Shown in pieces: positions 1 to 30,152 of a stretch of 58,268 nt of DNA. Made by a program: the position numbers and the translations under genes. Origin of the DNA: Candidatus Woesearchaeota archaeon (GTDB lineage: Archaea > Nanobdellota > Nanobdellia > Woesearchaeales > GW2011-AR9); contig JABHQW010000007.1 of assembly GCA_018696595.1 (NCBI GenBank), forward strand, positions 1 to 58,268, written 5' to 3'. How positions within the stretch are numbered: position 1 is the first letter of the stretch; every line of letters starts with the position of its first letter. A model generated the notes under the pieces. It worked only from the letters and a program-made list of their open reading frames with translations. It did not search any database and was not told the DNA's origin.

Positions 1-132
1 ATTCTAAAACACCCTTAAAGAGGAAAACCTAAACTAAAAAGAAAGACTATGGTTGTACTGGTTCCTGCGTCATAACTTCAACCTTCGCTATGCTCAGGTT
101 GCTCCCCAACATGAAGTGGGGGACAACTTAAC
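1..132 (+). repeat. Right arm of a truncated cassette (unit 0), same family as the right arm of cassette b
   Basis: Near-identical to 1966-2045 (ttctaaaac.cccttaaagaggaaaacc...ctggttcctgcgtcataacttcaa). Hairpin at 103-123, then caacttaac. Confidence 0.85.
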
Positions 133-136
133 ATAC

Positions 137-1183
137 ATTATGCTTAATTTTCAAGTTACCTAAAAGAGAACAATCCTGTCGGATAATCTCTAAACTAATG
201 CGTTGCTGTCTTTAACAATGTAAAAATCTATAACGGCAAAAACAAAAATAAACTGGAGCTCTCTGAACTATTTCAAATACTTTAAAAAGTCTAAAAAATT
301 ACTTAGAGTATAATGGTCATACCAATCATAAGTGATATAATCAGCAATATATGGTTCTTTCAAACAGAGAGTGTTGTACCATTATTTAAAGAAATATCAA
401 TCATTATCCTAATCCTATTTGTTGTTGATTTTATTTTAGCGGTAGTTCTTGATCAAGTTTTAATGAGATCAAAATATCATATTCCAATAGGATTAACGTT
501 GTGGCCAATATTTGTAGTAATTTTAACATACTTGTTTTATTCCTTTGGTGGACTTCTTGGTTTTAATTTTTACCAATTTGAGTTTAATAATCTTCTTGGT
601 TATGCAATAAAACATTGGTGGGTATTTGTAGTTTTTTGGATAATGACTTTATTTGGAAATATTCCTTATTCACTTGGCAAGTTAACCAAAAATGAAAAAG
701 TAATGAACTTTTTTGGAACATTCTTTACTCCCATACATGAAGAGTTCTTTTTTCGCTATTTAGGCATAAATACTATCTATGTACTTACCAATTCTATTGA
801 AATTGCAATAATATTTTCCTCTATTGGTTTTACATTGATCCATCTACCAAATAAATCCGGCGATAAATGGGGAGGGCCCGTAAAAATAAATGCAACATTG
901 TTTATGGGATTTGCATTAGGAATTATTGCTGTTAAGTATGGCTTCATTTTCGCAATAGCAATCCACATACTTAATAATTTACTAGCATTTTATGTTCTTC
1001 CTAAAATATTTAAAGATGAACAAATTTAACTAAAAAGAGAGCCCCAACTAAACACTAAAACTATTACTTGTTTTTGCCTAAACTAAATGTGTTAAAGACT
1101 TATGACAGCAACGCTCTATGAACGGTAACTTGAAAACTTCTCGGCTACGCCTCGACCCCGACGTAAAGTCGGGGAAGCATAAC
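137..1183 (+). mobile_element. Cassette a (CAAX protease cargo)
   Basis: Ends attatgctt / aagcataac (8/9 complementary). Nested inverted blocks ttttcaagttacc/ggtaacttgaaaa, gcgttgctgtc/gacagcaacgc, ggcaaaaacaa/ttgtttttgcc. Arms ~137-264 and ~1036-1183. Confidence 0.8.
313..1029 (+). CDS. CPBP/CAAX (Abi) family intramembrane metalloprotease
   Basis: Multi-TM protein with HEEFFFR (EExxxR), FTLIH and HILNN (HxxxN) motifs. Confidence 0.85.
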   Translation: MVIPIISDIISNIWFFQTESVVPLFKEISIIILILFVVDFILAVVLDQVLMRSKYHIPIGLTLWPIFVVILTYLFYSFGGLLGFNFYQFEFNNLLGYAIKHWWVFVVFWIMTLFGNIPYSLGKLTKNEKVMNFFGTFFTPIHEEFFFRYLGINTIYVLTNSIEIAIIFSSIGFTLIHLPNKSGDKWGGPVKINATLFMGFALGIIAVKYGFIFAIAIHILNNLLAFYVLPKIFKDEQI

Positions 1184-1296
1184 ATCGTTAAGTTGAATTA
1201 TTACTCGGAACCAGTAAGTTACAAACACTTAAAAAATAAAAAAGGTTTTCCTATCTATTAAAAATTAGGGCGTTTGAAAAAAAAGAAAAAAATAAT

Positions 1297-1905
1297 TTAC
1301 TCATAAAAATCATAACCAATCAGATGTTCTTTTATTTCCTTCTTACATCCAAATTCAGTATTGATGCCCGGATATTTAGCATTGTTACATTCATCATCTG
1401 GAAGTAATTGACAATAATGTTCATCATGATCACAACAACAGATTGGTAATTCAGACTCTTCATAAAAATCATAACCCATCAGATGGTCTTCTATTTCCTT
1501 CTTACATTCAAATTCAGTATTACTGTCTGGATATTTGGCATTATTACATTCATCATTCGGAAGTAATTGGCAATAATGTTCATCATGGTCACAACAACAA
1601 ATTGGTAATTCCGTTGGTACAATTGGTTTCAGAATTCTCTTTAGTTTCATTTTATACGCTGTCTTCAAAAACTTATCTTTTGGAATGTTTCTTGGAATTG
1701 TTAGTGTTTTTTTGTACGCTTGTCCTGCTAAAGCACTAGTATCCTCTGATTCTACTGTTTCAATTGCCTGATCTAATTCTTCAGCAGATAATTCACTTAA
1801 TTCTGCTTCCAATTCTTCATCAGAGATTTCTTCAGTAGGAGTACATCCAACCAAAAACATAAAAACAACTAATAAGCCCAACATAACTAAAAATATTTTT
1901 TTCAT
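1297..1905 (-). CDS. Secreted lipoprotein with two 53-aa Cys-rich repeats
   Basis: GAGGTG RBS before the ATG at 1905; signal peptide ending LVGC; duplicated ELPICCCDHDEHYCQLLP...GYDFYE. Confidence 0.75.
   Translation of the reverse strand: MKKIFLVMLGLLVVFMFLVGCTPTEEISDEELEAELSELSAEELDQAIETVESEDTSALAGQAYKKTLTIPRNIPKDKFLKTAYKMKLKRILKPIVPTELPICCCDHDEHYCQLLPNDECNNAKYPDSNTEFECKKEIEDHLMGYDFYEESELPICCCDHDEHYCQLLPDDECNNAKYPGINTEFGCKKEIKEHLIGYDFYE
1300..1611 (-). repeat. Intragenic tandem duplication, 159-bp period
   Basis: 1300-1452 and 1459-1611 encode near-identical peptide repeats. Confidence 0.9.
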
Positions 1906-2249
1906 AATAAACACCTCATTTTAAGTATAAATAAAGAACTATTTAATCCTTAATAAATATTACTATTCTAAAACGCCCTTAAAGAGGAAAACCCTAACTT
2001 TAAAAAAAGACTATGTTTGTAACTGGTTCCTGCGTCATAACTTCAAACTTGCCCATGGCAAGTTTGATCAGGACATAAAATCCTGACAACTTAACATCGT
2101 TATCTTCAATTCTCTTTGAGTTTAAGGGGCACTAATAACTATTCTAAAAAAATTATAATGGGGCAAAAACAATAAATATAAAAACAAAAATAGGGGCTCT
2201 CTTGTACTCTATTAATAACTAAACTCACAGACTAATACTACAAATAAGT

Positions 2250-2477
2250 TTATCTTTTCTTCTTACGTACAACTTCTTTGACTGGATGGCTAAGTAATGT
2301 TGGAAATAATATTCTTCGCAATCCTGCTAGTACTAATAAAACCGCAACCCAGGCAACCCAACCATCAATTCCAGACCATTTTGGCCAAACAAATGCGTTG
2401 AGTAAAAGTAACAATCCCCATGCAAGCCTCTTCACACCAAGATTACGAATACATTTAATATCTTTACACATGTCCAT
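2250..2477 (-). CDS. Small membrane protein, similar in layout to 38750..38950
   Basis: AGGTGA RBS before MDMCK; two TM segments with LLLLNA..W and a basic tail. Confidence 0.6.
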   Translation of the reverse strand: MDMCKDIKCIRNLGVKRLAWGLLLLLNAFVWPKWSGIDGWVAWVAVLLVLAGLRRILFPTLLSHPVKEVVRKKKR

Positions 2478-2499
2478 ATGTTTCACCTCTTTTTTTAAA

Positions 2500-2691
2500 C
2501 TACCAAACAAAAATTTCAGCTAGTGTTGATCCTGTATACATAAAGTATGCAACGACTCCAGCTAGTACTAATACTGCAACAATTAATATCACACCAATTC
2601 CCATCCTTAAATTGGGCGCCACAAGATGTAATAGTATCCTAAGAACAATTAGCCCACCTAAAACCAAAGCTAATATCATTAACGGTCCCAT
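2500..2691 (-). CDS. Small two-TM membrane protein
   Basis: Hydrophobic ORF, co-oriented with its neighbours. Confidence 0.55.
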   Translation of the reverse strand: MGPLMILALVLGGLIVLRILLHLVAPNLRMGIGVILIVAVLVLAGVVAYFMYTGSTLAEIFVW

Positions 2692-2746
2692 TTTTAAAAT
2701 GATATCTTATATATTTATAAGTTTTCCTAAAAGCTTTTTCTGTGAC

Positions 2747-3562
2747 TTACGCTGTTTGTAATAATTTATCGTAACCACCATACGTTTTGTTTAACCAATT
2801 GACAAGTAGACGAGCTAGAAGAGTTAAGATTACACCTGTCGCAGGTAGAGGAAGAACTTTTCCGGTTACTGCTGCAGCTCCTATAACAACCCTTTCTCTT
2901 AATTCCTTCTTTTCAATTAGTTTGGTAATTGCTTCCATTTGAGGTTCATTTTTCTGTAAAAACAAATCAAATCTCTTGATTATTTGTTCCTCGCTTAAAA
3001 TTAGATTGAACAATTTATTCAATTTCCTTCTGGAATTTGGAGTTTTATAACTTCTTATGAATTTATTAATAATTTTATCTTCAAGTTGTCTGGTTGCTAT
3101 CAACTTTACAAGCATCTTTCGGTTTGATCTGAAAAAATAATAGATTTTTATCATGGCCTTATGCACTTCATCTCTTGAATACAAAGCAGGCATTAAGAGT
3201 AGCGAAAAATATTTTGCTTTGGCACGAACTTTATCTTTAAATGCCATATATGTTTCTAGCCCATATAACTCTCTATCAATAACACTAATTATTACCCTTA
3301 GAATCATATTGGAAGCAAGTGAGTATTTTTCCAATTTTGTACTATGTTCAAGTAAATCATCCCAACTTTCAGATTTTTTTAAATCGAGGGCATATTCTAC
3401 TCTTTTAACATCGTTTCTTTCAAGAATATTAATAAGAAGTTTTAATGTCCTTTCGGTAAAAGTTCCTACCTCTAACTTAGCCCCAATAACATCCAAATCA
3501 TGTTCTGAAAGAGCTTCTGGAGAATATAATGTTCTAATGTCGCTATCTGAAACTTGGCTCAT
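2747..3562 (-). CDS. Hypothetical protein (helical, C-terminal hydrophobic segment)
   Basis: 271-aa ORF, no recognised motif. Confidence 0.7.
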   Translation of the reverse strand: MSQVSDSDIRTLYSPEALSEHDLDVIGAKLEVGTFTERTLKLLINILERNDVKRVEYALDLKKSESWDDLLEHSTKLEKYSLASNMILRVIISVIDRELYGLETYMAFKDKVRAKAKYFSLLLMPALYSRDEVHKAMIKIYYFFRSNRKMLVKLIATRQLEDKIINKFIRSYKTPNSRRKLNKLFNLILSEEQIIKRFDLFLQKNEPQMEAITKLIEKKELRERVVIGAAAVTGKVLPLPATGVILTLLARLLVNWLNKTYGGYDKLLQTA

Positions 3563-3783
3563 TATTCTGAATAATTATATTATAATTAATAAACATTTTG
3601 TAAACAAACAAGAGAGTCCCTTAATCTAACTTAAACTAAAAGTGTTTTTGCCCCCGGTCTAAATCTCATTTTAAAGGTATTAGTGCCCTGTATTCTAGAC
3701 TGCTATTGCAGTAATCTATACAAACTCAAAGAAAACTACTCGCTGCGCTCGTCCCCTACATAAAGTAGGAGGAAGATAACATC

Positions 3784-4775
3784 GTTATGTGCAATAAATT
3801 TTAGCGCGCTTTAAGAAGTGAACTTCTACTCGATTTCTTTTTTCTTTCACTGAGGTCTGCTCTTGTCATTTTTCTTTCTACTACTTCTTTTCTAGTTACT
3901 CCTGTTTTTTCTTTAAGTTCCTTAAAAGAAACAGAACCAAATTCACATCTGCTTATTGGAACGTCTTCTCCAATCCAAAATTCAGGAACTTTAAAATTGC
4001 CCTTGTACTTATCTATTCTTACTATTGATTTGTAATATTTTGTAAAAAGGAGATTGATGAAGAATTTTTTAAATTCAAGATAATTTTTTAATTTTGGTTT
4101 CTTTTTCATGAACATATCTTTTTCAAATGCTTCAGACAATTTAACCCAATCTTTTCCAAATTTCTTTTTCAAAATAGGCTTATGATATTTTTCATCCCAA
4201 TATTTTTGCTCTAAAACATAACAATGTTTTGCAATCTTATCTGTGATTTTAAACATAATATATTTATTACCTATTTTTGAAAAAATTGAAGCAATATAAT
4301 TAGGATCATTTGAACCTTTTAACCATCCATCTTGAAATTTCTTTGAAAAAGCCAAAATATAACCTTCATTATTAAAAAATTCCTCAAGTAATTTGTTTTT
4401 ATATTTAAATTCTATATCTCTATAACAACTTTCATAATTTTCTTCATCATCTTGTTCTTTTTTATACAGATCTATCAATTTTTTATTTTGGTGTTGATAT
4501 GCTTGTAATCTTCTAATTTCGGTTTTACTTAAAAAATCTTCAGGGCAATTTTCTAAAATCCAATCATAAGCATATGTTTTTGCAAAAGAAGTAGCCAAGA
4601 GCAGACCATCCTTCTTAATCTCTTTAATAAATCGAGTATAATGATAAAAAGTTTTAATTCTTCTCATAATCAAAAGAAGATTATTAGACTATAATAACTT
4701 TTCTATAAGCGCGCTAAAATTTACTTGCTCCGCATACATGCTACGCACCCCTACATAAAGTAGGGGGCACATAAC
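3784..4775 (+). mobile_element. Cassette d (ART-like cargo)
   Basis: Ends gttatgtgc / gcacataac (9/9). Inverted block taaattttagcgcgct / agcgcgctaaaattta; the cargo stop codon lies inside the left arm. Confidence 0.85.
3801..4673 (-). CDS. Hypothetical protein, possible ADP-ribosyltransferase-like fold
   Basis: N-terminal FYHYT...I..DGLL and C-terminal PEFWI...VP resemble the DarT/ART motif layout (pattern recognition only). Confidence 0.45.
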   Translation of the reverse strand: MIMRRIKTFYHYTRFIKEIKKDGLLLATSFAKTYAYDWILENCPEDFLSKTEIRRLQAYQHQNKKLIDLYKKEQDDEENYESCYRDIEFKYKNKLLEEFFNNEGYILAFSKKFQDGWLKGSNDPNYIASIFSKIGNKYIMFKITDKIAKHCYVLEQKYWDEKYHKPILKKKFGKDWVKLSEAFEKDMFMKKKPKLKNYLEFKKFFINLLFTKYYKSIVRIDKYKGNFKVPEFWIGEDVPISRCEFGSVSFKELKEKTGVTRKEVVERKMTRADLSERKKKSSRSSLLKAR

Positions 4776-4778
4776 ATC

Positions 4779-5587
4779 GTTAAGTTTAAGTTTCTTTTTT
4801 CCTGAATTTCGCTTTTATGTACTTTTTTACGTATAAGTCGATGATAAATCTCCATATCCATAATAAAATAAATAAATGAAGAATCTTGCGAAATCCTGAC
4901 CAGTGCTCCTACTCAAATTAGAACAGGGATAGCTCAATAAACCTGAAAACTTTAGAAACTTATTTAAATGATTTTTTATTACTTAACTGTATGAATGATT
5001 GTTTGTTTTGTAAGATTGTAAAAAAAGAAATCCCAATCACAAAAATATATGAAGATAAGAAAGTTCTTGCTATATTGGACATCCAACCAGTCAATGATGG
5101 TCACGTTTTAATAATTCCAAAGAAGCACGCAGTTCTTATTACAGAATTAGATGATAATTTAACTTCACACCTATTCAAAGTAGCAAAGAAAATAAACATT
5201 TCTTTAAGAAAATCAGGGCTTAAGTGTGAAGGTGTTAATTATTTTCTCGCTGATGGTGAGGCAGCAATGCAAGAAGTACCCCATGTACATTTACACGTAT
5301 TTCCAAGATATAAGAAAGATGGTTTTGGTTTGAAATTCGCGAAAAAATACTTTAAATTACCATCAAGAAAAAAACTTGACATCATAGCAAAAAAAATCAA
5401 AAATAATAAATAAATGAAGATTCTGAGCTATCCCTGAACTTGTTCTATTTGGAGCCCTGTTCATCGGAAAAAAGAAACCTCTGCGTAACCGGGTACTCAT
5501 TAGTTTCTTATATTATCGCCTTCGGCGAATTTCAACACTAATGAGCACTCCGTTACTTGCGGGAGGATGAACCTCCCGAAACTTAAC
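4779..5587 (+). mobile_element. Cassette e (HIT cargo)
   Basis: Ends gttaagttt / aaacttaac (9/9). Inverted blocks tttctttttcc/ggaaaaaagaaa and cagggatagctca/tgagctatccctg. Confidence 0.85.
4991..5413 (+). CDS. hit: HIT family nucleotide hydrolase (Hint-like)
   Basis: CLFCKI N-terminus, GHVLIIPK, HVHLHVFPR histidine triad. Confidence 0.95.
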   Translation: MNDCLFCKIVKKEIPITKIYEDKKVLAILDIQPVNDGHVLIIPKKHAVLITELDDNLTSHLFKVAKKINISLRKSGLKCEGVNYFLADGEAAMQEVPHVHLHVFPRYKKDGFGLKFAKKYFKLPSRKKLDIIAKKIKNNK

Positions 5588-5778
5588 ATCGTTAAGCTTA
5601 ATTTTCAAGTTACCTAGACGAGAACAATCCTGTCGAATACTCTCTAAACTAATGCGTTGCTGTCTTTAACAATATAAAACTCTATAACGGCAAAAACAAT
5701 AATTATGATAAAAATAAAATTGGGGACTCTCTTAAAAAATGTAGAAAAATATATTAACTTAGTAAAATTGACAAAACT

Positions 5779-5961
5779 ATGCGACTAAATGAAATTAAAA
5801 CATTAACAGGTTACATTATAGCTGTTGTTTATTTTCTAATAGTAATTTTTGTTATAATTCTAAACATTAGGTCTCCAATATTACACATTGTGATTGTTTC
5901 ATCAATTGTTATTGGGGTTGTTTTGTGGTTCTTCTACCTTTGGTTGGTTAAGTATTTTTGA
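5779..5961 (+). CDS. Small membrane protein
   Basis: Two hydrophobic helices; overlaps the convergent ORF by 60 bp. Confidence 0.4.
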   Translation: MRLNEIKTLTGYIIAVVYFLIVIFVIILNIRSPILHIVIVSSIVIGVVLWFFYLWLVKYF

Positions 5962-6201
5962 AATAAGAAAACCAATTCCTGCACCAATTCCAAATCCTAC
6001 AATTAACACAACTATAATCCACAAGATACCTGGAGGAAAGCCAAGAATTGATACAGTTCCAGCCATTCCTGATGTTTCACCAGCCACAAATTTCTGTAAC
6101 TCTAAATGTTTCATATATGAATAAATAAACAAAATCACTTCAAATATTAAAGCAACAACAATTCCAATAATTAACCAGAGTTTATTTTTCATTTTAATCA
6201 T
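5902..6201 (-). CDS. Small two-TM membrane protein
   Basis: Hydrophobic ORF with plausible composition. Confidence 0.6.
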   Translation of the reverse strand: MIKMKNKLWLIIGIVVALIFEVILFIYSYMKHLELQKFVAGETSGMAGTVSILGFPPGILWIIVVLIVGFGIGAGIGFLISKILNQPKVEEPQNNPNNN

Positions 6202-6603
6202 CTCTTTTTTATTATTTCTATGAAATTACTTTAATCTTTTTAAAATTAACTCTTCTCAATGAACGAAAGAGCCCCCCAAACACTAAAAAACTAATTGTTT
6301 TTGCCTTTAAACTAACTAAACTAAGAACTATGACAGCAACGCACTATGCACGGTAACTTGAAAACTTCTCGCTAACGCTCGACCTGGACGTAAAGTCCAG
6401 GAAGCTTAACATCGTTAAGTTCAATATTTTTACCGCCTTGTAGGTTCACACAATGTTCCCGAAAATCTTTTGCACTGGCACCTTTGCATAGACGAGAACA
6501 ACAAACGTGAGGAAATTAAAACTTCCTATAACATTGTCTATGCGATTTCATTTCATTACACCCAAATTCACTAATAGGCAGGGGGCGGAGAGTTATTATT
6601 AAA

Positions 6604-7146
6604 CTATCTAAGAGAACTAACACATTCAACAAATTCTGGAATAACTTTTATTCCAACTAACTTAACCCCACTTAACAAGTCAATAGCCGTATCAATATTC
6701 TTATTACACTGATTAATCCTAATTTCAAAATTATTCCTCATCTTCAAAAAATCATCATTTAGAATATCAAAATCATTTCTAGTTCTTTCTAATTTCTTCT
6801 CAATCCGCTCTTTAAAGACAATAATCTTTTTTACTTCCTTAACGAGTTCTTCCCATTTTTCATCAATTAAAGTATCAACAATCTCTTCTACTTTTTCGTA
6901 GATCATTTGCTCTGTTGATATATTGCCGACTTCAGTAAAATAATCTCCCTGCTCCTGAAAATTCTCATCAAAATCTTCCTCTTCATTTTGAAAAGTTTCA
7001 TCCGGTTGTCCAAAAGCCCAGTTAATTTCCTCTTCACTGTAACCTTTCGTAATCAATTCATCAAAAACATATTCGTCAGATAAACCATAATTTCTTAAAT
7101 TTTTTACTTCCAGAAGCAAATTATTGTAATAGTCCCTCTCCGACAT
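6604..7146 (-). CDS. Acidic coiled-coil hypothetical protein (DPANN-type)
   Basis: GGAGG RBS before MSERDYY; EEIVDTLIDEKWEELVKE segment recalls a conserved DPANN hypothetical family. Confidence 0.65.
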   Translation of the reverse strand: MSERDYYNNLLLEVKNLRNYGLSDEYVFDELITKGYSEEEINWAFGQPDETFQNEEEDFDENFQEQGDYFTEVGNISTEQMIYEKVEEIVDTLIDEKWEELVKEVKKIIVFKERIEKKLERTRNDFDILNDDFLKMRNNFEIRINQCNKNIDTAIDLLSGVKLVGIKVIPEFVECVSSLR

Positions 7147-7218
7147 CTGAAACCCTCCACCATCTGTCAAGATGTTCCCATTTTTCATCTTCATCAAACA
7201 ATCCAAAATTTTCTGAAA

Positions 7219-7383
7219 TCATTTTCTTATTTTCAACTCTTTTATTGCTTCTCTTAGCAGCTTACGGAGAGACTTTCTTTTGCTTTGCACAGGAGCAGGA
7301 CTTTTTTCTACTTCTCTTATTTCACCATAACTAAAATCTGGGTCTTTCTCTATTTTTGGGATATGCTCAAAATATTGGTTCAT
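7219..7383 (-). CDS. Small hypothetical protein, 54 aa (not in ORF track)
   Basis: MNQYFEHIPKIEKDP...LREAIKELKIRK; overlaps the end of the upstream ORF. Confidence 0.4.
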   Translation of the reverse strand: MNQYFEHIPKIEKDPDFSYGEIREVEKSPAPVQSKRKSLRKLLREAIKELKIRK

Positions 7384-7525
7384 TTTCCAATACCTCTTGA
7401 TCTTCAGGAATTCCTTTCAGTAATCTTTCCCAATTCTCTTCACGCAGATCATTCCACTCTTCATCGTAATCATAGTCTTCCCTTGATGCCCGCCACTTTA
7501 ATTTTTGCTTACGAGATCGAGCCAT
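7367..7525 (-). CDS. Small protein with basic N-terminus and acidic C-terminus
   Basis: GGGGTGA RBS before MARSRKQKLK. Confidence 0.55.
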   Translation of the reverse strand: MARSRKQKLKWRASREDYDYDEEWNDLREENWERLLKGIPEDQEVLENEPIF

Positions 7526-7606
7526 GATAATCACCCCTTTAAGCCTAACAGTAAAAGAAGTATAAAATTCTGTGGTAGAAATCACCAACTTTTTTGGGAA
7601 AAATAG

Positions 7607-7903
7607 TTAACCATAAAGTGCAATCCCCCCTAAAATAAAGATATAACAAATCAACCAAAGAACATAAGTGATGATAATTGGCTTTTTCTTATGTATGCTT
7701 CCGTAGGCTATCCAAACAAGTGCAATTAATATGTAGGAAAGCCAAGCAATCGCTGATACTCCACTCGCATTTTTTCCAATCCAAATTTTAGTTATTTGAG
7801 GAATCGTCATCGCCAATCCAAAAAAACCGGAAGAATAAATCAAAGTGTCAATTAGTTTTTCTTTTTTCGCTAGAAAAGTATATCTTGTTTGGTTTTCTTT
7901 CAT
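7607..7903 (-). CDS. SemiSWEET / PQ-loop family transporter
   Basis: TIPQITKIWIGKNASGVS motif, three TM helices. Confidence 0.85.
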   Translation of the reverse strand: MKENQTRYTFLAKKEKLIDTLIYSSGFFGLAMTIPQITKIWIGKNASGVSAIAWLSYILIALVWIAYGSIHKKKPIIITYVLWLICYIFILGGIALYG

Positions 7904-7975
7904 TTTCCATGCTAACCATAAATTATATGTTGAAAAGAAAAAAGATATTTGGGAATAAAAAATTGTCTTAAAGAC

Positions 7976-8071
7976 TTATTTTTTCTTCCCTTTCTTTGCT
8001 CCTTTTTTGGATTTCTTACCAGAAGCTTCTGCTCCAGCTGCAATCTTTGCTTTCCTTGATTTAGTTGCCAT
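7976..8071 (-). CDS. Lys-rich micro-protein, 31 aa
   Basis: MATKSRKAKIAAGAEASGKKSKKGAKKGKKK; GGAGGT RBS. Confidence 0.55.
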   Translation of the reverse strand: MATKSRKAKIAAGAEASGKKSKKGAKKGKKK

Positions 8072-8090
8072 TATATTTTACCTCCATTAT

Positions 8091-8258
8091 TCAGTCATAA
8101 TCATACTTGTAAGCCCAATCGTCATCATCTGGGTTGGTCTTCTTTCTGTTAGAACCTTCAAGGTTTCCCTCTTCGTAATCTTCTAACTCTGCAGAATCTT
8201 CTCCAAACCATCCAATGAAACTAAAGTTCTCATCTTTAAATTCTTCAGTATCTTTCAT
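8091..8258 (-). CDS. Acidic micro-protein, 55 aa
   Basis: MKDTEEFKDENF...DDDDWAYKYDYD; GGTGAGGGG RBS. Confidence 0.55.
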   Translation of the reverse strand: MKDTEEFKDENFSFIGWFGEDSAELEDYEEGNLEGSNRKKTNPDDDDWAYKYDYD

Positions 8259-8325
8259 TTTCCCCTCACCATCTAATTGAAAAAAAGAAAAAAAATTTAA
8301 AACAGAGATTTCCTCTCAAAGAGAG

Positions 8326-8358
8326 TCACTTTTTCTTTTTTCCTTTCTTTTTAGCCAT
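8326..8358 (-). CDS. Lys-rich peptide, 10 aa
   Basis: MAKKKGKKKK; GAGGTG RBS. Confidence 0.4.
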   Translation of the reverse strand: MAKKKGKKKK

Positions 8359-8386
8359 TGTGGAATCCACCTCATCAAGATTTTTT

Positions 8387-8464
8387 TTACTTCTTTTTTT
8401 TCTTCTTTCCTTTTTTTTTACCTTCTTTAGACTCAGCTGCAGCTTTCTTTTTCTTTTTGGCCAT
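8387..8464 (-). CDS. Lys-rich micro-protein, 25 aa
   Basis: MAKKKKKAAAESKEGKKKGKKKKKK; GAGGTGA RBS. Confidence 0.55.
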   Translation of the reverse strand: MAKKKKKAAAESKEGKKKGKKKKKK

Positions 8465-8481
8465 TTATTTCACCTCATTTT

Positions 8482-8592
8482 TTAATAATCCTTGTCCCAA
8501 CGATCATCATCATCAGGATCAGGTTCTTCTTTGTCCTCATCTTCAAAATCTTCGTCATTACCTTCATTTTTCTTCTTCTTTCTTGGCGGCAT
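8482..8592 (-). CDS. Basic/acidic micro-protein, 36 aa
   Basis: MPPRKKKKNEGNDEDFEDEDKEEPDPDDDDRWDKDY; GGAGGT RBS. Confidence 0.55.
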   Translation of the reverse strand: MPPRKKKKNEGNDEDFEDEDKEEPDPDDDDRWDKDY

Positions 8593-8605
8593 TTTTTGTA
8601 CCTCC

Positions 8606-8737
8606 TTACAGTATTGCTCCGCAATAAGGGCAAACTAAAGAAAGCCCTTCCATTTTTGTTTCATCTACAAACACTTTACACTTCGGACAATAACAACCCT
8701 GATGGCTTTTTTTTGAAGAGGTGTTTTGGCTTGTCAT
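8606..8737 (-). CDS. Zinc-ribbon micro-protein, 43 aa
   Basis: CPKC...CPYC; missed by the ORF track. Confidence 0.65.
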   Translation of the reverse strand: MTSQNTSSKKSHQGCYCPKCKVFVDETKMEGLSLVCPYCGAIL

Positions 8738-8820
8738 TGTTGTTCAGAAAGAAAGAAAAGTACCTATATAATCTTGCGGTAGGTGAAATAAACCAAAAAA
8801 AGAAAATAAGTTTAAACTAA

Positions 8821-9378
8821 TTATTTCTTTTTCAGGAAGAACTCGTTAAGCGGGAATTCTTTCTTGTCAAGAATTTCATAAAGCAGACCTATCGGTGATT
8901 CTGTGATTATCTTCTCAGTGGAAAATGGATAAATATGTAAGATTTCAACTTCTCTGGAAAACTTCGTCTGCATTTTAGCAACGTATCTATCCATTTGATC
9001 TAAATCCTTAAAGCCCATAATCAATATATGGCTCGCTTTAGGCTCTGTGACACGATAAGCATTAATCACGTAGGGGATTTGCTTAATCCTCTGTGAAATC
9101 TGTTCATCACTATGAGAATCCCAGACTTCTGAAGTTAGCTTAATGATGAGCATCGCCATTACTTTAATCCCTAATTTCCTTAAATCAAGAATAGGCTGAT
9201 AGCCTTTAATTATACCTTTATCTTCTAACTTATGACGAATCTTAAAAACAGCTTGAGGAGAAAGACCCATCTTTTTAGCTATTTCTGTATCGGGCAATTT
9301 AGCAGACTGGATAATCGTCTTTAAAACTTCCTGATCATTTCTTGTTAAGTGGGGGTTCTCTGGGTCTGGCTGCTTCAT
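8821..9378 (-). CDS. Lrp/AsnC family transcriptional regulator
   Basis: HTH TEIAKKMGLSPQAVFKIRHKLEDKGIIKGY followed by a RAM-type domain. Confidence 0.9.
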   Translation of the reverse strand: MKQPDPENPHLTRNDQEVLKTIIQSAKLPDTEIAKKMGLSPQAVFKIRHKLEDKGIIKGYQPILDLRKLGIKVMAMLIIKLTSEVWDSHSDEQISQRIKQIPYVINAYRVTEPKASHILIMGFKDLDQMDRYVAKMQTKFSREVEILHIYPFSTEKIITESPIGLLYEILDKKEFPLNEFFLKKK

Positions 9379-9698
9379 AGTAAGCTAAAATAACTAACAA
9401 CTTTAAAAGCATTTCTAAGAAATTTAAATAACTCTCCGCCCCATGGTTTTACTCTGCTTTGCAGTAATTGATATGCCTATTAGTGAACTACGGTGCCAGT
9501 GCGATTTTCGGCGGTAAAAATACTCTGCGATTTAATGTTCTCCGTGAGGAATTAATAAAAAAATTCTAGTCTCACTCCGAACTTAAATCTTGGTCTCCCC
9601 ACTCCGCAAACATATCACTGTAAAAGTAGATGTTTAAATCGAAAGAACCCGCTTCTGTAAGTCGCTATAATTCCCTAAATGTTTGCTCGTAAGTCGAC

Positions 9699-9810
9699 GA
9701 ACTTAACAGGAATTATGCGGTTGCGTTACTCAGGCTCCCCTCTAAAGGGGTCGCCCTGCGTTACTCACCCAAATGGCTTCGCCACTTCGCATAATTCCAC
9801 CGTTATACGT
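9699..9810 (+). repeat. Junction J7 with a 94-nt attC-like palindromic insert
   Basis: gaacttaac-aggaattatgcg...cgcataattccacc-gttatacgt; near-identical to 12271-12373. Confidence 0.8.
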
Positions 9811-10122
9811 AATTTTTTATTTGCCTTGCCTTTGGCAACTTTCTTAGCTCTTTTCCTTTCCCATGCAAAGCTCAAGTAAAAACCGAAAAGAAAGCTTCGG
9901 GCTACGTCGGGAATGTTTAACGTTGGTACTTTCGTTTAGTCGGATAAAACAAAAAGAATTCAATTGAAACTGAATATAACATTGACTAAACGGCTTCGCT
10001 TCGCTACGACCCAAATTTTTTTAATGAATCTAAATCAAGTAATAATTACAAAATACTATTAATTTCAGATGAATTTATAAACTAATCCTGAAATTTTTAC
10101 GCTTAAATTGACAAATAAAGAA

Positions 10123-11172
10123 ATGGAATCATTGAACTTTTTGATAACTAATGCAAAAGCACAAACTTTTCCAGGAACAGTCTACAGCTTAAAGCAAGAA
10201 TTTAAAGGAAAAATAATTTCTGTATCTTATAAAGAAAACGCAATAGGTGCATTCCTTTCTGATAAAAATTTTATAATCTCAAAAAACGATTCTTCTCAAT
10301 ACATCAGAGAAATTTTGTCCATTTGTAAAGAAGAAAAAATCGATGTAATCATCCCACTTAGTATTGAAGAAAGAATTATTTTTCTTAAAAATAAACAACT
10401 GTTTGATGAAAATGAAATTAAGATATTCTCTTCAAGTATTGAATCAATTGAGAATGCAGAAAATAAAGTTTTTCTTTATGAACTTTGTAAGAAAAATAAT
10501 ATTCTAACTCCTTATTTTTATGTTGTTAATAATTATACTGACTTAAAAGAAAAAGCGTTATTATTAGGTTATCCACAGAAAAAAGTAATCATCAAACCAA
10601 TTAATTCTTGCGGTTCGAGAGGTTTAAGAATATTAAATAAAAAAGCTGATTACAAAAAAAACTTTTATAATATTAGAGCAGATTACACTGAAATTACTTT
10701 AAGTGATCTTAGAAATATTATTGGAAGTAAATTTAGAGATTTAATGCTTTGTGAATATATCTCGGGTGAAGAATATACCGTCGACTGTTTGCGTTTAACT
10801 GAACATCATTTTTCTTTTCCTAGAATAAGAAAAGAAGTAAAAAATGGATTAACATATGTTGGCCAGATGAGTAAGCATGAAGAAATAATTCAATCAAGTC
10901 AAAAATTAGCAAATATTTTGGATTTAACAACCGTATTTGGTTTCCAGTTTAGATTGAATGAGATGAATAAGCCTGTAATCATTGATTGCAACCCTCGAAT
11001 TCAAGGAACAATGATTATGAGCACTTTAGCAGAAGCAAATGTAATAGCTGCTGGGATTAAGATTTTGTTAAATAAAACTAAAGTAGAATTTAATCCTGAT
11101 TGGAACATGACATATTATAGATTCTGGGGTGGTGTTTCTGTTGGTAAAACGAAAAAAATAGTTAATTTTTAA
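10123..11172 (+). CDS. ATP-grasp domain protein (carbamoyl-phosphate-synthase-like)
   Basis: IIKPINSCGSRG, CEYISGEEYTVD, IIDCNPRIQG. Confidence 0.85.
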   Translation: MESLNFLITNAKAQTFPGTVYSLKQEFKGKIISVSYKENAIGAFLSDKNFIISKNDSSQYIREILSICKEEKIDVIIPLSIEERIIFLKNKQLFDENEIKIFSSSIESIENAENKVFLYELCKKNNILTPYFYVVNNYTDLKEKALLLGYPQKKVIIKPINSCGSRGLRILNKKADYKKNFYNIRADYTEITLSDLRNIIGSKFRDLMLCEYISGEEYTVDCLRLTEHHFSFPRIRKEVKNGLTYVGQMSKHEEIIQSSQKLANILDLTTVFGFQFRLNEMNKPVIIDCNPRIQGTMIMSTLAEANVIAAGIKILLNKTKVEFNPDWNMTYYRFWGGVSVGKTKKIVNF

Positions 11173-12106
11173 CTATTCCCAGATGGATGATTCTTGATCC
11201 AGCATAATTAACTGGATTAGTGTTTTTTCCGATAATAATTCCATTTTCAGGAGAATGATATTCTTTTATAACTTTTCCAAAGATATCACTTACAATTGCA
11301 ATTTTTTCTCCCTTTTTTACATTAGATCTCAACCCTGGTAAAACATTTAAAATTCCACCTCCTTTAGTGTTAATTCTTTGCGAACTAGTGCAAATAGTTG
11401 GATTAGTATTAATTGAAGTTTTTCCATCAATAATATTTAGATAAATTAAGCAGTTAACTATTCCTTTAACCGCATTAGAAATCACTTCATTTTGAAATTT
11501 GTTTGGGTCCCCCAATTCTAGAGTAATCGCTATTATTCCATTTTCATTTGCCTGTCTTCTCAGGGTTCCTTTTCCACCTATTGAATTAAGGATAATATCT
11601 GAATTTAGTAGTAATGACAAATCGTAAATAACTTTATTTTTCAAATTAGCTCTAACATAAAAAGAATTCACATTTCCAATTCTCGCTGTATGTAGATCAA
11701 GAATATAATCAAAATTTTTTATAACTTTATTAAAAATATTGAACGCATAAATACTACTCTCTGTGCCATTTTCCTTTCCAGGAAATTTATAATTCAAATC
11801 TCTTCCGTCAATAAAATTTCTTTCTTTTCTTAAAAAACCAGGCACATTAATTACTGGCACTCCTACAATAATTCCTTTTAATTTATTTAAATCAATTTCA
11901 TTAAACACTTTATGGATTACCAAAAGACCATTTAATTCATCTCCATGAACTAGTGCTGTTAATCCAAATGTTGGTCCCTTTTCTTTTCCTTTTAATACCA
12001 TAACTGGAACACTAATATCATGACCCAAACTATTTGAAACTATCTTTAACCAGCAACTTGTTAATCCTACTGGAAAATTATTAAAATCCAATTCTTTTAT
12101 CTCCAT
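11162..12106 (-). CDS. Succinylglutamate desuccinylase/aspartoacylase family (M14) protein
   Basis: HGDELNG, DLNYKFPG, LDLHT, TLELG. Confidence 0.9.
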   Translation of the reverse strand: MEIKELDFNNFPVGLTSCWLKIVSNSLGHDISVPVMVLKGKEKGPTFGLTALVHGDELNGLLVIHKVFNEIDLNKLKGIIVGVPVINVPGFLRKERNFIDGRDLNYKFPGKENGTESSIYAFNIFNKVIKNFDYILDLHTARIGNVNSFYVRANLKNKVIYDLSLLLNSDIILNSIGGKGTLRRQANENGIIAITLELGDPNKFQNEVISNAVKGIVNCLIYLNIIDGKTSINTNPTICTSSQRINTKGGGILNVLPGLRSNVKKGEKIAIVSDIFGKVIKEYHSPENGIIIGKNTNPVNYAGSRIIHLGIVKN

Positions 12107-12270
12107 GAAGAGAGGTTTTATCCATAACTATAAAAATTTAATTGAATAAACCACATATATAATTGGTTTTACTCTGCTACGCAGTTATTGATAACGATTC
12201 ATTAAAAAAACTACAGTACCAACTACATTCCCGACAAATAAAAAACTCCGCAGACCATCAAAGGTCTGCT

Positions 12271-12373
12271 ACGTATAACAGGAATTATGCGGTTGCGTTA
12301 CTCGGGGCATCAAAGCCCCTGCGTTACTCACCCAAATGGCTTCGCCACTTCGCATAATTCCAACGTTATGCTC
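12271..12373 (+). repeat. Junction J8 with an 85-nt attC-like palindromic insert
   Basis: acgtataac-aggaattatgcg...cgcataattccaac-gttatgctc. Confidence 0.8.
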
Positions 12374-12950
12374 AATTAATCTTTTCCTCTTTTCCAAAAA
12401 CATCTTTATTGCCAACTTTTGCTTTCTCAACTGTTATCTTAATCCTCTTAATTCTAGTTTCTTCACGTTTCCCACGTAAGATCCATCTATAAAAAACCTT
12501 TTTTAGAGAAGCAGAGTACTTTTCAAAATTATCTTTAGCTTTCTTATTTTTATCTAAAGCTTTCTTTAATTCAACAGGTATATCTGGATTTTTTGGAATT
12601 CCAAAATCATGTGTGGGCTTCATCAGACCTTCTTTGTAAAATTTCAAGCCTGAAGGAGTCATTTTTCCACGTTCAATCAACTGTTTACCATACCCGAGAG
12701 TGTTATCACTCCATTTACTATTTTTATTCCTTCTAGAAAATGTTCTGATATACCTTTCTTCATCTAATTTTTTAAGTGTAGTATCAATCCAACCAAAACA
12801 AATCGCTTCTTCCATTAATTCTCTGTGAGAAGGAGATGACTTACCTGTATGTTTCTTGTAAACTATAACTAAAACTTTATCTTCTTTATCATGATTCGTC
12901 ACTAACCACTTTCTAAAATCTATTCTATTGAATGCAGTTATTGTCTTCAT
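12372..12950 (-). CDS. YdeI/OmpD-associated family protein
   Basis: FRKWL, EEAICFGWID, F..R...S.WS..N and IPVELKKAL motifs; GGTGA RBS. Confidence 0.9.
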   Translation of the reverse strand: MKTITAFNRIDFRKWLVTNHDKEDKVLVIVYKKHTGKSSPSHRELMEEAICFGWIDTTLKKLDEERYIRTFSRRNKNSKWSDNTLGYGKQLIERGKMTPSGLKFYKEGLMKPTHDFGIPKNPDIPVELKKALDKNKKAKDNFEKYSASLKKVFYRWILRGKREETRIKRIKITVEKAKVGNKDVFGKEEKIN

Positions 12951-13072
12951 AGTATCACCATTAATCTTTGATATCATTTAAACTTTATGGGTTTTTCTGT
13001 TTCAATATTTTATATTGGTTCAATACTCCACTTTTTGAAATCCCCTTATCCTTCAGACATATAGACCCCCCA

Positions 13073-13093
13073 GCACATAACATCATTAAGTTC
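13073..13093 (+). repeat. Degenerate junction J9
   Basis: gcacataac-atc-attaagttc(aat). Confidence 0.65.
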
Positions 13094-13139
13094 AATTTAA
13101 ACACACATCTTTATAACTGAGAAGCATATTTTGCAGTAT

Positions 13140-14390
13140 ATGGATACATCATTTAAAGATCTTAATCTGAACCCGCAATTAGAAAGAGCATTAACTAAAT
13201 TAGGATATAAAGTACCAACCCCGATTCAGTTGAAAGCAATCCCGGGTTTATTAGAAGGTAAGGACCTAATAGGTATTGCACAAACAGGCACTGGTAAAAC
13301 TGCAGCATTTGTATTACCAATACTGCACCGGATGGTTGAAAAATATCCTAGAAAAATTAGAACTTTAGTAGTTGCACCAACACGAGAACTAGCAGCACAG
13401 ATTGGAGAAAGTTTTACCCAATATGGAGAGTTCTTGAAGTTTAAACACACAGTTATCTTTGGTGGTGTTAAACAAGGAAAACAAGTTCAAGCATTAACTA
13501 AAGGAGTAGACATTCTTGTAGCAACACCAGGAAGATTATTAGATTTAATAGATCAAAGAAAATTAACTCTTAAAAATGTAGATTTTTTTGTCCTTGATGA
13601 AGCAGACAGAATGTTAGACATGGGATTCATTAATGATATTAAAAAAATAATTTCCAGATTACCTCATAAAAGACAATCACTATTCTTCTCAGCAACAATG
13701 TCTCCACAAATCAACAAACTTGCAAAGAGTTTACTTAATAACCCAATTCATGTTGAAGTTACGCCTCAAGCAACTACGGTAGAATTGATCAAACAAGAAG
13801 TCTTTTTTGTTGACCAAAAAGCTAAAGAACAGTTATTGCTTAAACTTTTGAAACATGAACACCTTACAAGTATTCTAATTTTTACTAGAACAAAACATCG
13901 AGCAAACAAAGTTGCTGTTTTCCTTAATAAGAATAATATTTCTGCCGATGCAATTCATGGCAACAAATCACAAAATGCAAGAACAAAAGCAATTAAAGAT
14001 TTTAAAACAGGTAAGATTAAAGTTTTAGTTGCAACTGATATTGCTGCACGAGGGATAGACATTCCAGAAATTTCTCATGTGATAAATTTTGAACTTCCTA
14101 ACGAACCAGAAAGTTATGTTCACCGGATTGGTAGAACTGCCAGAGCTGGAGCTAAAGGAACAGCATTTTCATTTTGTGCTGCTGAAGAAAGAAGTTATCT
14201 TCACAGTATTGAAAGATTGATCAAACAAAACATTGAAGTTATGGATCACACTTTTCATTCAGAGACTGCAAAAAACGCAGTAGGTGCAGCAGCCAAACCA
14301 GCACCAAAACAAAGAGGATCATTTAGATCAAAAAGCAAAAAATCATTTTCTAAAAAGTTTAAGCCCAAACACCGTTTTAAAAGAAGATAG
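13140..14390 (+). CDS. rhlE: DEAD-box RNA helicase (RhlE-like)
   Basis: AQTGTGKT, PTRELA, DEAD, SAT, HRIGRTAR. Confidence 0.92.
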   Translation: MDTSFKDLNLNPQLERALTKLGYKVPTPIQLKAIPGLLEGKDLIGIAQTGTGKTAAFVLPILHRMVEKYPRKIRTLVVAPTRELAAQIGESFTQYGEFLKFKHTVIFGGVKQGKQVQALTKGVDILVATPGRLLDLIDQRKLTLKNVDFFVLDEADRMLDMGFINDIKKIISRLPHKRQSLFFSATMSPQINKLAKSLLNNPIHVEVTPQATTVELIKQEVFFVDQKAKEQLLLKLLKHEHLTSILIFTRTKHRANKVAVFLNKNNISADAIHGNKSQNARTKAIKDFKTGKIKVLVATDIAARGIDIPEISHVINFELPNEPESYVHRIGRTARAGAKGTAFSFCAAEERSYLHSIERLIKQNIEVMDHTFHSETAKNAVGAAAKPAPKQRGSFRSKSKKSFSKKFKPKHRFKRR

Positions 14391-14468
14391 TAATAGAATT
14401 AACTAAGGAGATAAACTGATTTATATTTTCTTTTTAAGATTATCTAGTGTGGGGGAGGGTCAGAATTA

Positions 14469-14492
14469 GCCCATAACGTTGTTAAGCTCAAT
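14469..14492 (+). repeat. Degenerate junction J10
   Basis: gcccataac-gtt-gttaagctcaat; right half fits the junction consensus. Confidence 0.5.
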
Positions 14493-14521
14493 CGTGAAAA
14501 AAAATAAAAAATAAAAAAAAA

Positions 14522-15298
14522 TTATTTTCTACAGGCAACAATGGTTTCTCTTACACATTCACTCATTAAATCATAAGCCCCATTTTCTATGAGAGAATCA
14601 TGCAATTTACCAGTAAAACTTCCAGGTCCAGCAACTTGACCATATATTTCATCACCGGATGTTCCCATGAGTAAACGTTTTCCAATTGCCATTAAAGTTG
14701 CCCCATACATAGCTCTTGCATCTTCTTCATTCAATCCATCTAAAGAATCTATTTTGCGTTCTATTCCTTTAGCCATCAAACCAGTATCACAAGCAATCCA
14801 AGTACGATCAGCCAAAGCTTTTTCATCAACTTCTTTAGCTGAACCTCCAAAGATGTACTTTACTATTGCCTCATCTTCTTCGGTGGTTTTAGAACCAAGC
14901 GCATATGCTGCTATTTCATCAGATACAAAAATGCCAGTCATCACTCTGCAAACTCTTGATTGGTCAAGAATTGATTCTATATTTGCAATACTCTTTCCTG
15001 CGGCAAGAGAAATTACCAGTTTATCTTTAGCAGAGTATTTTATCTCTTCACAGACATCATCAAGAGAATTTGGTTTTAAACCCAGAATTACTACATCAGA
15101 ATTTTTAACAGCATAAACATTGTTATTGCTAACTTCAATGCCATATTGTTGTTGTAACTTTTCCAATCTTTCTAAGTTTCTTCTTGCTGCAATTATTCTT
15201 TGATGTCCTTTTTTCTTCAAGGCATCAATCACTTTGGTTCCTAAGTATCCCGCACCAACTACAGAAATAGTCTTATCGCTGACAAGGAATACAATCAT
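14522..15298 (-). CDS. Pyrroline-5-carboxylate reductase-like oxidoreductase
   Basis: VVGAGYLG Rossmann motif, SDVVILGLKP, ISLAAG, VAGPGSFT; divergent C-terminus. Confidence 0.7.
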   Translation of the reverse strand: MIVFLVSDKTISVVGAGYLGTKVIDALKKKGHQRIIAARRNLERLEKLQQQYGIEVSNNNVYAVKNSDVVILGLKPNSLDDVCEEIKYSAKDKLVISLAAGKSIANIESILDQSRVCRVMTGIFVSDEIAAYALGSKTTEEDEAIVKYIFGGSAKEVDEKALADRTWIACDTGLMAKGIERKIDSLDGLNEEDARAMYGATLMAIGKRLLMGTSGDEIYGQVAGPGSFTGKLHDSLIENGAYDLMSECVRETIVACRK

Positions 15299-27439: not shown

Positions 27440-28155
27440 TTTGTTCCAAAAGTTTTTATTGCCTCATCTAAATCCAATTCAATATAATCAAACAAACAAG
27501 CCCGAAGAATTAACCTTTCTCTTGCCTCTGGATGATCTGGCAAATTTGTTCTAAATCCACTTCTTTTTCCAAAAAGATCTGGGGAGTAAATTAACAGTGC
27601 TGGAAAAATATGTTCTTGATTTTCATTAATGGTATTCTCCTTAAAGTATGCAGGATAAAAACTAAACGGAGAAATTACCCAACAATCAGGAATCTGAAAA
27701 TTCCTATCCCAATAAGCTCTCGTGAATTCATGGTCTCCTTCAAATTCATCTCTCCAAGCAACTTCACAACCCTCTTTTAAAGTTCTAACAACGTTCTTAA
27801 CTAGGTAATGCCATTCTCCACGTTTATTTTTTACAGTAAACTCAAAATCTGGACCTGTTGTCGTTGTTATTCCCCTAAAACCAATTTCTCTCCCAGTATA
27901 TTCTTTTCTTAAATCAGGAACGACTCTACTTTCAATAACATTAGTATAAACGTGAGTTATTAATCCATCAGTATGTTGGTTTCTATCAAAATCGGTTTTA
28001 TTCATTTTTGGATCAAATAAAAATTGATATGTGCTTCCCATTTCTTCCATCCACATTTTAGCTGTTTCTTCATCAACCGGATAATAACTAATTCTTGGAT
28101 CTTGTTGAGCTAATTCTTCAAGTAACTCTGAGTTTGGTCTATGAATGGTAAGCAT
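27436..28155 (-). CDS. Hypothetical protein embedded in the polyamine operon
   Basis: 239-aa ORF translationally coupled on both sides. Confidence 0.65.
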   Translation of the reverse strand: MLTIHRPNSELLEELAQQDPRISYYPVDEETAKMWMEEMGSTYQFLFDPKMNKTDFDRNQHTDGLITHVYTNVIESRVVPDLRKEYTGREIGFRGITTTTGPDFEFTVKNKRGEWHYLVKNVVRTLKEGCEVAWRDEFEGDHEFTRAYWDRNFQIPDCWVISPFSFYPAYFKENTINENQEHIFPALLIYSPDLFGKRSGFRTNLPDHPEARERLILRACLFDYIELDLDEAIKTFGTK

Positions 28156-28156
28156 T

Positions 28157-30123: not shown

Positions 30124-30152
30124 TTTAATCCTCGTAATTTTTTAATACCATT

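Follow-up and report, generated by a model that had tools for sequence, protein, structure and literature searches.

The textbook machinery for gene capture in bacteria is the integron. Integrons have attC sites that are contiguous hairpins of 57–141 nt with the order R''-L''-loop-L'-R', the crossover takes place at the base of the hairpin (G/TT of R'), and their cassettes carry co-oriented, promoterless open reading frames (ORFs) read from a common promoter. Xer enzymes are able to use a folded single strand, as in CTXphi, and we know of no system that is intermediate between Xer and the integron integrase IntI. The integrase is thought to have descended from Xer-type enzymes (PMC4792948), and both integrons and clusters of attC sites lacking integron integrases (CALINs) have been reported in archaea (Ghaly et al. 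2022, PMC9668308). The Xer site dif of bacteria and archaea consists of 11-bp inverted arms around a 6-bp spacer and occurs once per chromosome, near the terminus (PMC2958812). The pdif sites of Acinetobacter, XerC/XerD sites that flank plasmid-borne resistance genes, switch direction from one site to the next (C/D, then D/C), and their recognition depends on sequence (PMC11705084). Here we describe an array of putatively mobile gene cassettes at the start of a 58,268-nt stretch of DNA from a marine Candidatus Woesearchaeota archaeon (hereafter the window), which forms the start of contig C2 of the source genome G000 (1.19 Mb, 97% complete). The label DPANN, given to this archaeon in the initial annotation, fits the genome size and the archaeal marker families.

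Positions 1–13093 of the window hold nine cassette units (a to i) of 0.7–3.3 kb each. The initial annotation had proposed that the first nine nucleotides of each unit are the reverse complement of its own last nine, and the pairs that it listed were reproduced: the ends match at 9/9 positions in b, c, d, e, f, g and h and at 8/9 in a, and unit i (7/9) could be added. The window contains 8 copies of the 9-mer AACATCGTT, where shuffling predicts 0.45, and 0 of 100 shuffled sequences reached this count. Six of the copies (1181, 2093, 3778, 4773, 5585 and 6408) mark consecutive true joins on the + strand, the a/b join at 1175–1195 (arm-TAAC-ATC-GTTA-arm) and further joins at 2087–2107, 3772–3792, 4767–4787, 5579–5599 and 6402–6422, all of which share the invariant 11-base core TAAC-ATC-GTTA. 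The remaining two copies (3407 and 18783) fall within ORFs, have none of the flanking features and probably arose by chance. The proposed AAC-ATC-GTT joins are therefore exact at six consecutive positions, but g/h and h/i hold a structured insert of 85–94 nt where ATC would stand. A 7-bp G+C-rich hairpin with the loop rTrAA lies directly upstream, followed by five variable nucleotides, TAAC and ATC; downstream of ATC come GTTA, five variable nucleotides and AAT (AAG at one join). At any single join, the variable positions of the left and right arms are unmatched.

Since the window begins at the start of contig C2, the array is truncated by the assembly. One more join-like site stands at the very end of contig C8, for which a partner start was searched and not found. 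A genome-wide scan of G000 detected no hairpin-plus-arm element beyond the array and this contig end, so that the sites are confined to the array; the initial annotation had named a genome-wide spread of the motif without complementary unit ends as an argument against cassettes. No tRNA genes were found in the window, and Rfam models at gathering thresholds gave no match in it.

The junction motif recurs in seven related genomes. Arrays with the core TAACATCGTTA were found in the same-family genomes G012 (12 joins), G021 (10 and 6), G020 (5), G002, G009, G016 and G001, and the asymmetric centre ATC is oriented alike in all joins. A single TAACATCGTTA in the closed genome G039, as well as those in G032 and G007, lack any site features and are probably chance occurrences. 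In G012 (loci L026/L025, units at 30056–34060 in reversed coordinates), the ends look nested, the start arm GTTATGTCG pairing with CGACATAAC three joins on, which suggests either that cassettes were inserted at a secondary site within a cassette or that this is a composite unit.

The pairing rule was examined in 47 units bounded by two exact ATC joins, from eight genomes of one family. Complementarity is perfect at all six variable positions in 31 of the 47; with shuffled partners (10,000 trials), the number of perfect units averaged 2.3 and reached at most 10. Arms match perfectly across a join in only 1 of 61 joins, in keeping with the initial claim that the variable positions covary within a unit and not across a junction. 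When arms were compared across the join in an alignment of 53 joins, the four invariant pairs always pair, and the five variable positions are unpaired in 6–26 of the 53.

Inverted repeats at the ends of every unit, with the same three nucleotides on both sides, might also be left by terminal-inverted-repeat transposons, or by elements resembling miniature inverted-repeat transposable elements, inserted side by side with a 3-bp ATC target duplication. However, the repeats (the 9-nt arm and a 13-nt outer stretch) differ from unit to unit yet stay complementary, and a transposase that reads sequence could not recognise repeats private to each unit. No transposase domain was detected in the units of the window, the sites lie in one array per genome instead of being dispersed, and the conserved side hairpins are present at one end only. 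We consider this explanation highly improbable.

The initial annotation had set a fixed gene order in relatives against mobility; in genomes of the same genus, the flanks of the array are kept and most cassettes are absent. The genes to the right of the array are retained at 75–81% identity in two such genomes, with homology beginning at 13090, and the genes carried by cassettes a, c, d, e, f, g and h are missing from the same-genus genomes (81–84% complete), in which only cassette i (84%), fragments of the repeat-containing ORF of b and site modules find a match. G001 holds the h/i join, 100% identical over 136 nt, followed by ~5.5 kb of other cassettes and then by a homologue of i (84%). Rce1-like cargo 67% identical to that of cassette a is carried by a G021 cassette with different ends, and G012 has the ends of cassette a enclosing other cargo.

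Logan contigs of four independent seawater metagenomes were aligned to positions 1–14600 of the window; in run X12, window parts without cover were not counted as evidence. In run X10, cassette a forms a separate contig spanning exactly 138–1190 without mismatch, with a depth of 171 compared to 5 for cassette b, and cassette e (4772–5485, 98% identical) reaches a depth of 114 compared to 7 for cassette d and is preceded by a different upstream arm. These two cassettes are 16–35 times deeper than their neighbours, and their contigs end exactly at the joins, a break at the last shared base of the core being the behaviour of a de Bruijn graph in which one cassette occurs in several contexts. The depths support an independent distribution of single cassettes, although other arrays and free circles would look alike in them. 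Several contig joints that go back or skip were rejected as excision products, as they have short sides (21–37 nt) or involve the homologous end modules z/b and a/f. The comparative and metagenome-context evidence indirectly supports mobility, and the proposal that independently mobile cassettes were stacked here is supported: it is very probable that the cassettes are moved by site-specific recombination at the core.

The junction that each cassette would form as a circle (its last 75–84 nt, ATC and its first 40–50 nt) was reconstructed and folded with DNA parameters. A cassette starts with GTTA, five variable nucleotides, AA(T) and a cassette-specific stretch of ~13 nt, and it ends with the complement of that stretch, two hairpins, five variable nucleotides and TAAC. 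The reconstructed sites adopt the same four-way structure in nearly every cassette: an outer stem, P1, formed by the cassette-specific stretch after the start GTTAnnnnnAA and its complement ~55 nt before the end; a small variable hairpin, P2; the 7-bp hairpin, P3; and the 9-bp arm hairpin, P4, with the ATC loop at its tip. The mean folding free energy is –26.3 kcal/mol for a cassette's own ends, compared to –15.2 kcal/mol for the real in-array joins and –14.7 kcal/mol for random half-site pairs; own-end pairing is more stable in 31/31 cases, the median length of the longest exact P1 run is 13 nt, compared to 5 nt for controls, and the site of cassette b reaches –36.3 kcal/mol. The minus strand folds better by 0.8 kcal/mol on average (28/33 cases).

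The fold is also supported by comparison between cassettes. Cassettes a, f and G012 27911–29203 share one set of related end modules, and cassette b and G002_C41 53–1918 share a second, with arms that are different yet matched in both sets; between f and a, whose end modules are homologous, the arms show compensatory change. Related modules with different but matched arms indicate that the pairing itself is under selection. In P3, both-sided changes are seen at 7/7 pairs, 97% of cells are paired and one-sided (G.U-type) changes number zero, and covariation this strictly Watson–Crick, with no wobble, is easier to reconcile with a DNA structure (single strand or cruciform) than with RNA. The joins might nevertheless be read as RNA-level intergenic elements (terminators, processing or circularisation signals) between immobile genes, given the conserved hairpins between genes and the significant folding of the insert (z about –4). 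Apart from the absence of a G.U class, this is contradicted by genes that face either way relative to the element, by end-to-end pairing that spans whole genes of either orientation, by the turnover of cassette content between close relatives and by metagenome depths uncoupled from those of the neighbours, and we regard it as very unlikely.

A tyrosine recombinase, IntI- or XerA-like, had been predicted next to the array. A XerA-like and not an IntI-like gene adjoins the array in G012 and G009, but no xer gene adjoins it in the assembled part of G000, nor in G020. In a tree of the Xer-type proteins of the family, clade A contains the array-adjacent genes of G012 and G009, a contig-end gene of G021 and the single full-length genes of G000 and G020. 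Transcription of the G012 recombinase gene (323–342 aa), which is separated from the first ATC join by ~1.6 kb, leads away from the array, and the order of the locus is the divergent xer gene, ~300 nt with a degenerate attI-like site, at least 13 cassettes and, a few kb on, a DEAD-box gene. The attI-like site (agcatataaaga/GTTATGCCT), ~300 nt from the xer start, begins the first cassette, which carries a DUF7790 gene. The xer gene of G009 is likewise divergent from the array.

The clade A proteins score above the cut-off (220 bits) of the NCBIfam XerA equivalog model NF040815, with 232.3 bits for G000 and 235.7 and 231.7 bits for the array-adjacent proteins of G012 and G009. In comparison, the integron-integrase model TIGR02249 gave 150–216 bits, in two stretches, for all five Xer-type proteins tested (cut-off 265). 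Alignment of the candidate recombinase to IntI4 (2a3v) skips chain residues 179–240, the segment containing the IntI-specific domain, and its best solved relatives are the XerA structures 5hxy and 4a8e.

In G000 the clade A gene is located on contig C3 (265133–265957) and is the only full-length Xer-type gene found. A lone site, GCCTATAAC-AAT-AGTATAAGC, stands ~60 nt upstream of it. A flank of ~60–65 nt with a half-site (…CTAGTGyGGGAG.GGGTCAGAATTAGCCyATAAC) occurs twice in this genome, immediately before the xerA-type gene at about 264990–265075 of C3 (minus strand) and, past the DEAD-box gene at the right end of the array, at 14405–14477 of the window, where it belongs to a lone degenerate site with its left flank (14405–14489, + strand; the site itself, 14469–14489, reads GCCCATAAC-GTT-GTTAAGCTC). 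The 20-nt flank motif (window 14458–14477) was found only in G000 and in none of 23 relatives. This duplication hints at a former connection between the xer-proximal site and the array end; the duplicated flank may have been left by a rearrangement that moved xer and the array apart, or it may be an accessory or promoter element common to both places.

The locus resembles an integron in several respects. It is a head-to-tail array of mostly one- or two-gene cassettes, and cassette content is hypervariable when relatives are compared. Each cassette begins with a sequence complementary to a site element close to its own end, as expected after passage through a circular intermediate; the crossover lies between GTT/AAC triplets; and conservation of the site concerns its fold and not its sequence. 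In the relatives G012 and G009, a divergent tyrosine recombinase gene stands beside the array, with an attI-like site in G012, a layout that mirrors intI, attI and cassettes; in G000, the left end of the array falls in an assembly gap. The arms also resemble R-boxes, such as ACATAAC/GTTATGG of a published Nanoarchaeota attC. These features could suggest a classical integron or a CALIN of the kind known from archaeal metagenome-assembled genomes (MAGs), the joins being ordinary attC sites recombined by IntI. However, the mismatch to the classical attC layout noted in the initial annotation was borne out: only 3 nt, and no L boxes, separate the R-like arms, and the folded site is split between the two cassette ends. 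The published Nanoarchaeota attC has the classical layout, unlike the joins of this array, and the TAACATC core is in no sequence of the supplementary text of Ghaly et al. 2022 (PMC9668308). The joins were examined for an R'' 50–130 nt upstream or for L boxes, and a reading as classical attC was rejected, since each arm has its partner at the other end of the cassette; sequence to the right of a join does not pair with sequence to its left. All candidate recombinases fail the integron-integrase model and are without the IntI4 179–240 segment, there is no Rfam match, and gene orientation is mixed, 43 cassettes dividing into 28 with the longest ORF on the – strand and 15 with it on the + strand. 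An ordinary integron or CALIN is accordingly extremely improbable.

The differences from integrons extend to the architecture of the site. The candidate recombinase has no IntI-specific insertion and is classed as XerA by its scores; the R-like arms meet at the tip of the fold (3-nt gap) and do not form its base; the crossover splits the folded site into halves of ~30 and ~80 nt, whereas integrons leave 6 nt on the far side; and a four-way junction takes the place of the R-box/L-box hairpin with extrahelical bases. Array genes point both ways, and from this we infer that cassettes carry their own expression signals.

We propose the following mechanism. The array would be assembled by conservative site-specific recombination, each cassette end being half a recombination site, with strand exchange within the invariant TAAC-ATC-GTTA core. 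An excised cassette would become a circle in which the two half-sites unite into one, and the united site, as single-stranded DNA or as a cruciform, would fold into the four-way junction P1–P4; selection on this fold would maintain the complementarity of the two ends. Circles could then re-enter at any join, or at the attI-like site beside the recombinase gene, giving head-to-tail stacking. The most likely catalyst is the clade A XerA-type tyrosine recombinase, which is favoured because its gene lies divergently beside the G012 and G009 arrays and no other full-length Xer-type gene was found in G000. With moderate confidence, we thus view the locus as a chromosomal mobile-cassette array in which a XerA-type enzyme acts on a folded circle site. 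More tentatively, and with slightly less than even weight, it may be an integron-analogous gene-capture platform of this DPANN family, in which the XerA-type enzyme works on a folded four-way site with the crossover at an R-box-like hairpin tip (an 'inside-out attC'), a living intermediate between Xer/dif and IntI/attC.

Several observations weigh against this model or parts of it. The complementarity rule is violated by 16 of the 47 units, and cassette g has neither the side hairpin nor the outer stem, i.e. it lacks the fold. Circle junctions and empty sites, to which the initial annotation had pointed as signs of mobility, were not seen, nor were excision products, in the metagenome contigs of the four runs, which drop rare forms. 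Counts of G.T versus A.C mismatches in P3 are without asymmetry and show no strand preference. Symmetric arms leave a centre of odd length (3, 5 or 7 nt depending on the arm definition), unlike the 6-bp dif spacer, and to our knowledge a crossover at a hairpin tip has no precedent among the folded-DNA substrates of tyrosine recombinases. With regard to the enzyme, no array was found near the xerA-type gene of G000, on contig C3, which has one lone degenerate site only. G012, G009 and G021 encode a second Xer-type paralogue (clade B), which falls narrowly under the XerA cut-off (210–212 bits versus 220). Finally, G000 (C6:89664–90170), G012 (C2:170971–171477) and G020 (C3:88337–88843) encode a 206-aa tyrosine recombinase that lacks the N-terminal SAM-like domain and has near-identical N-termini between genera; it looks like a core gene and is another candidate, which might act on the array or on dif instead.

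Some of these points would be accommodated if the same cassettes were handled by another machine, be it the clade B Xer, the 206-aa recombinase or an unrecognised single-strand 'cut and rejoin' enzyme. End pairing would then bring two ATC joins together, and the XerA-type gene would be a bystander or supply only the landing site (dif). The location of xer away from the array in G000 and G020, the clade B genes of three genomes and the high conservation of the 206-aa recombinase in G000, G012 and G020 agree with such a scheme, as does the fold requirement, which an ordinary double-stranded Xer/dif reaction does not explain. On the other hand, it is a clade A xer gene that divergently adjoins the array in G012 and G009 and stands at the end of a contig in G021, G000 and G020 bear arrays but yielded no clade B gene, the core is dif-type in appearance, and no gene for an HUH or other nuclease recurs beside the examined arrays. 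We judge a different machine to be unlikely, and retain the clade A enzyme as the candidate.

The XerA-type candidate also invites comparison with Xer/dif. In its double-stranded form, the join has dyad symmetry and resembles dif, with arms ending in ..WTAA/TTAW.. around an asymmetric centre of constant direction, and these TAA/TTA ends are like those of the dif arms of Escherichia coli. The centre is of odd length instead of a 6-bp spacer, and many sites occur in one array. As in the integrative mobile elements exploiting Xer (IMEX; CTXphi, VGJphi, TLCphi and the gonococcal island), elements stack in tandem at one chromosomal locus, but here they are bare gene cassettes and not phages or islands. 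Unlike in Xer/dif and IMEX, each cassette brings private self-complementary arms and an outer stem. Both IMEX elements and pdif modules demonstrate that Xer is able to mobilise DNA, but neither has private self-complementary ends or a conserved fold. The pdif modules of Acinetobacter are similar in being small gene modules bounded by Xer-type sites and found in varied contexts (PMC11705084), whereas in the array all sites have the same direction, the arms vary freely yet remain complementary within a cassette, and each site has a conserved multi-hairpin structure. No description of a Xer-driven or DPANN cassette array of this kind was found in the ~8.4 million papers and preprints searched, in line with the earlier suggestion that the system may be undescribed.

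The array follows the logic of integrons (cassettes, the footprint of a circular form, a site defined by its fold) with a XerA-type candidate enzyme and a dif-like core. If the proposed mechanism is correct, it would explain the exchange of accessory genes in genome-reduced symbiotic archaea, would amount to another, independent way of capturing cassettes, and would open the transition from Xer to IntI to experiment. Tools based on attC would probably miss such arrays, and 'integrase-less' cassette clusters in archaeal MAGs may need re-examination.

The cargo in the window is accessory and unrelated between cassettes, and several ORFs belong to no family; a few units of ~300 nt, among the arrays examined, have no ORF. 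All cassettes are given in + strand coordinates. Cassette a (137–1183; ends ATTATGCTT/AAGCATAAC) encodes a Rce1-like CAAX protease (313–1029, + strand). Cassettes b (1187–2095; GTTAAGTTG/CAACTTAAC), c (2099–3780; GTTATCTTC/GAAGATAAC) and d (3784–4775; GTTATGTGC/GCACATAAC) carry – strand ORFs without a Pfam family, at 1297–1914, at 2250–2510 and 2747–3562, and at 3801–4673, respectively. The ORF of cassette b is predicted to be secreted or lipoprotein-like and has an internally duplicated Cys-rich module (ELPICCCDHDEHYCQLLP.DECNNAKYP); weak DNA matches to it are present on several contigs of same-genus genomes. Cassette e (4779–5587; GTTAAGTTT/AAACTTAAC) encodes a HIT-family protein (4991–5413, + strand), and cassette f (5591–6410; GTTAAGCTT/AAGCTTAAC) a small membrane ORF (5902–6201, – strand). 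The 3.3-kb cassette g (6414–9707; GTTAAGTTC/GAACTTAAC) has three – strand ORFs, including a helix-turn-helix/MarR-like regulator (8821–9378). Cassette h (9802–12279; GTTATACGT/ACGTATAAC) contains an ATP-grasp enzyme (10108–11172, + strand) and an AstE/AspA-like deacylase (11162–12106, – strand), and cassette i (12365–13081; GTTATGCTC/GCACATAAC) an OmdA/YdeI-like protein (12372–12977, – strand). To the left of a, only the 3' end of a further cassette, z, is present (1–132, + strand), cut by the contig start and ending in the hairpin and the arm CAACTTAAC. It is a copy related to cassette b, and a metagenome contig links a b-like body to its end (joint 1980->20). The join z/a (124–145, + strand; CAACTTAAC-ATAC-ATTATGCTT) is degenerate.

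The inserts that replace ATC lie, on the + strand, at 9708–9801 (g/h) and 12280–12364 (h/i). The first is 94 nt long, with an 11-bp closing stem (ggaattatgcg/cgcataattcc), an internal hairpin and two copies of GCGTTACTC, and the second is another copy of the same structured element; their folding is significant, at the z value given above. Members of this family (also at loci L058, L059, L060, L061 and L062) were found in 10 of 40 relatives, one of which is a genome of another family, and consist of an element-specific 11-bp closing stem, a conserved core with GGTTGCGTTACTC, an ATCAAA-loop hairpin and TGCGTTACTCACCCAAAT, and a variable right part. Cassettes adjoining the inserts have a P3 hairpin with the same ATCAAA loop. 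The insert may define another class of join, or it may be a small element with the join as its target.

The right-hand border between the variable array and the conserved chromosome is a degenerate terminal join (13073–13093, + strand; GCACATAAC-ATC-ATTAAGTTC). The terminal join of the same-genus genome G001 (contig C45, locus L050, reverse strand, 6377–6397) reads GAACTTAAC-ATC-ATTATGTGC; the two genomes have the same two arm types with their positions swapped, and in both ATT replaces GTT on the right side. Beyond the join follow a DEAD-box helicase (13131–14390, + strand), a P5CR-like reductase, an RNase H-like protein and CDC48. The helicase is a conserved right-hand neighbour, which also adjoins the array in G016 and lies near it in G012. 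At its other end (about 58160–58268), the window closes in perfect 18-nt tandem repeats (CTTCAGCAGGAGCTTCCT) that run on into the start of contig C4. Further overlapping contig ends (C6/C1, C4/C7, C7/C3 and C6/C8) bring the assembly near closure, with three gaps left, one of them at the array.

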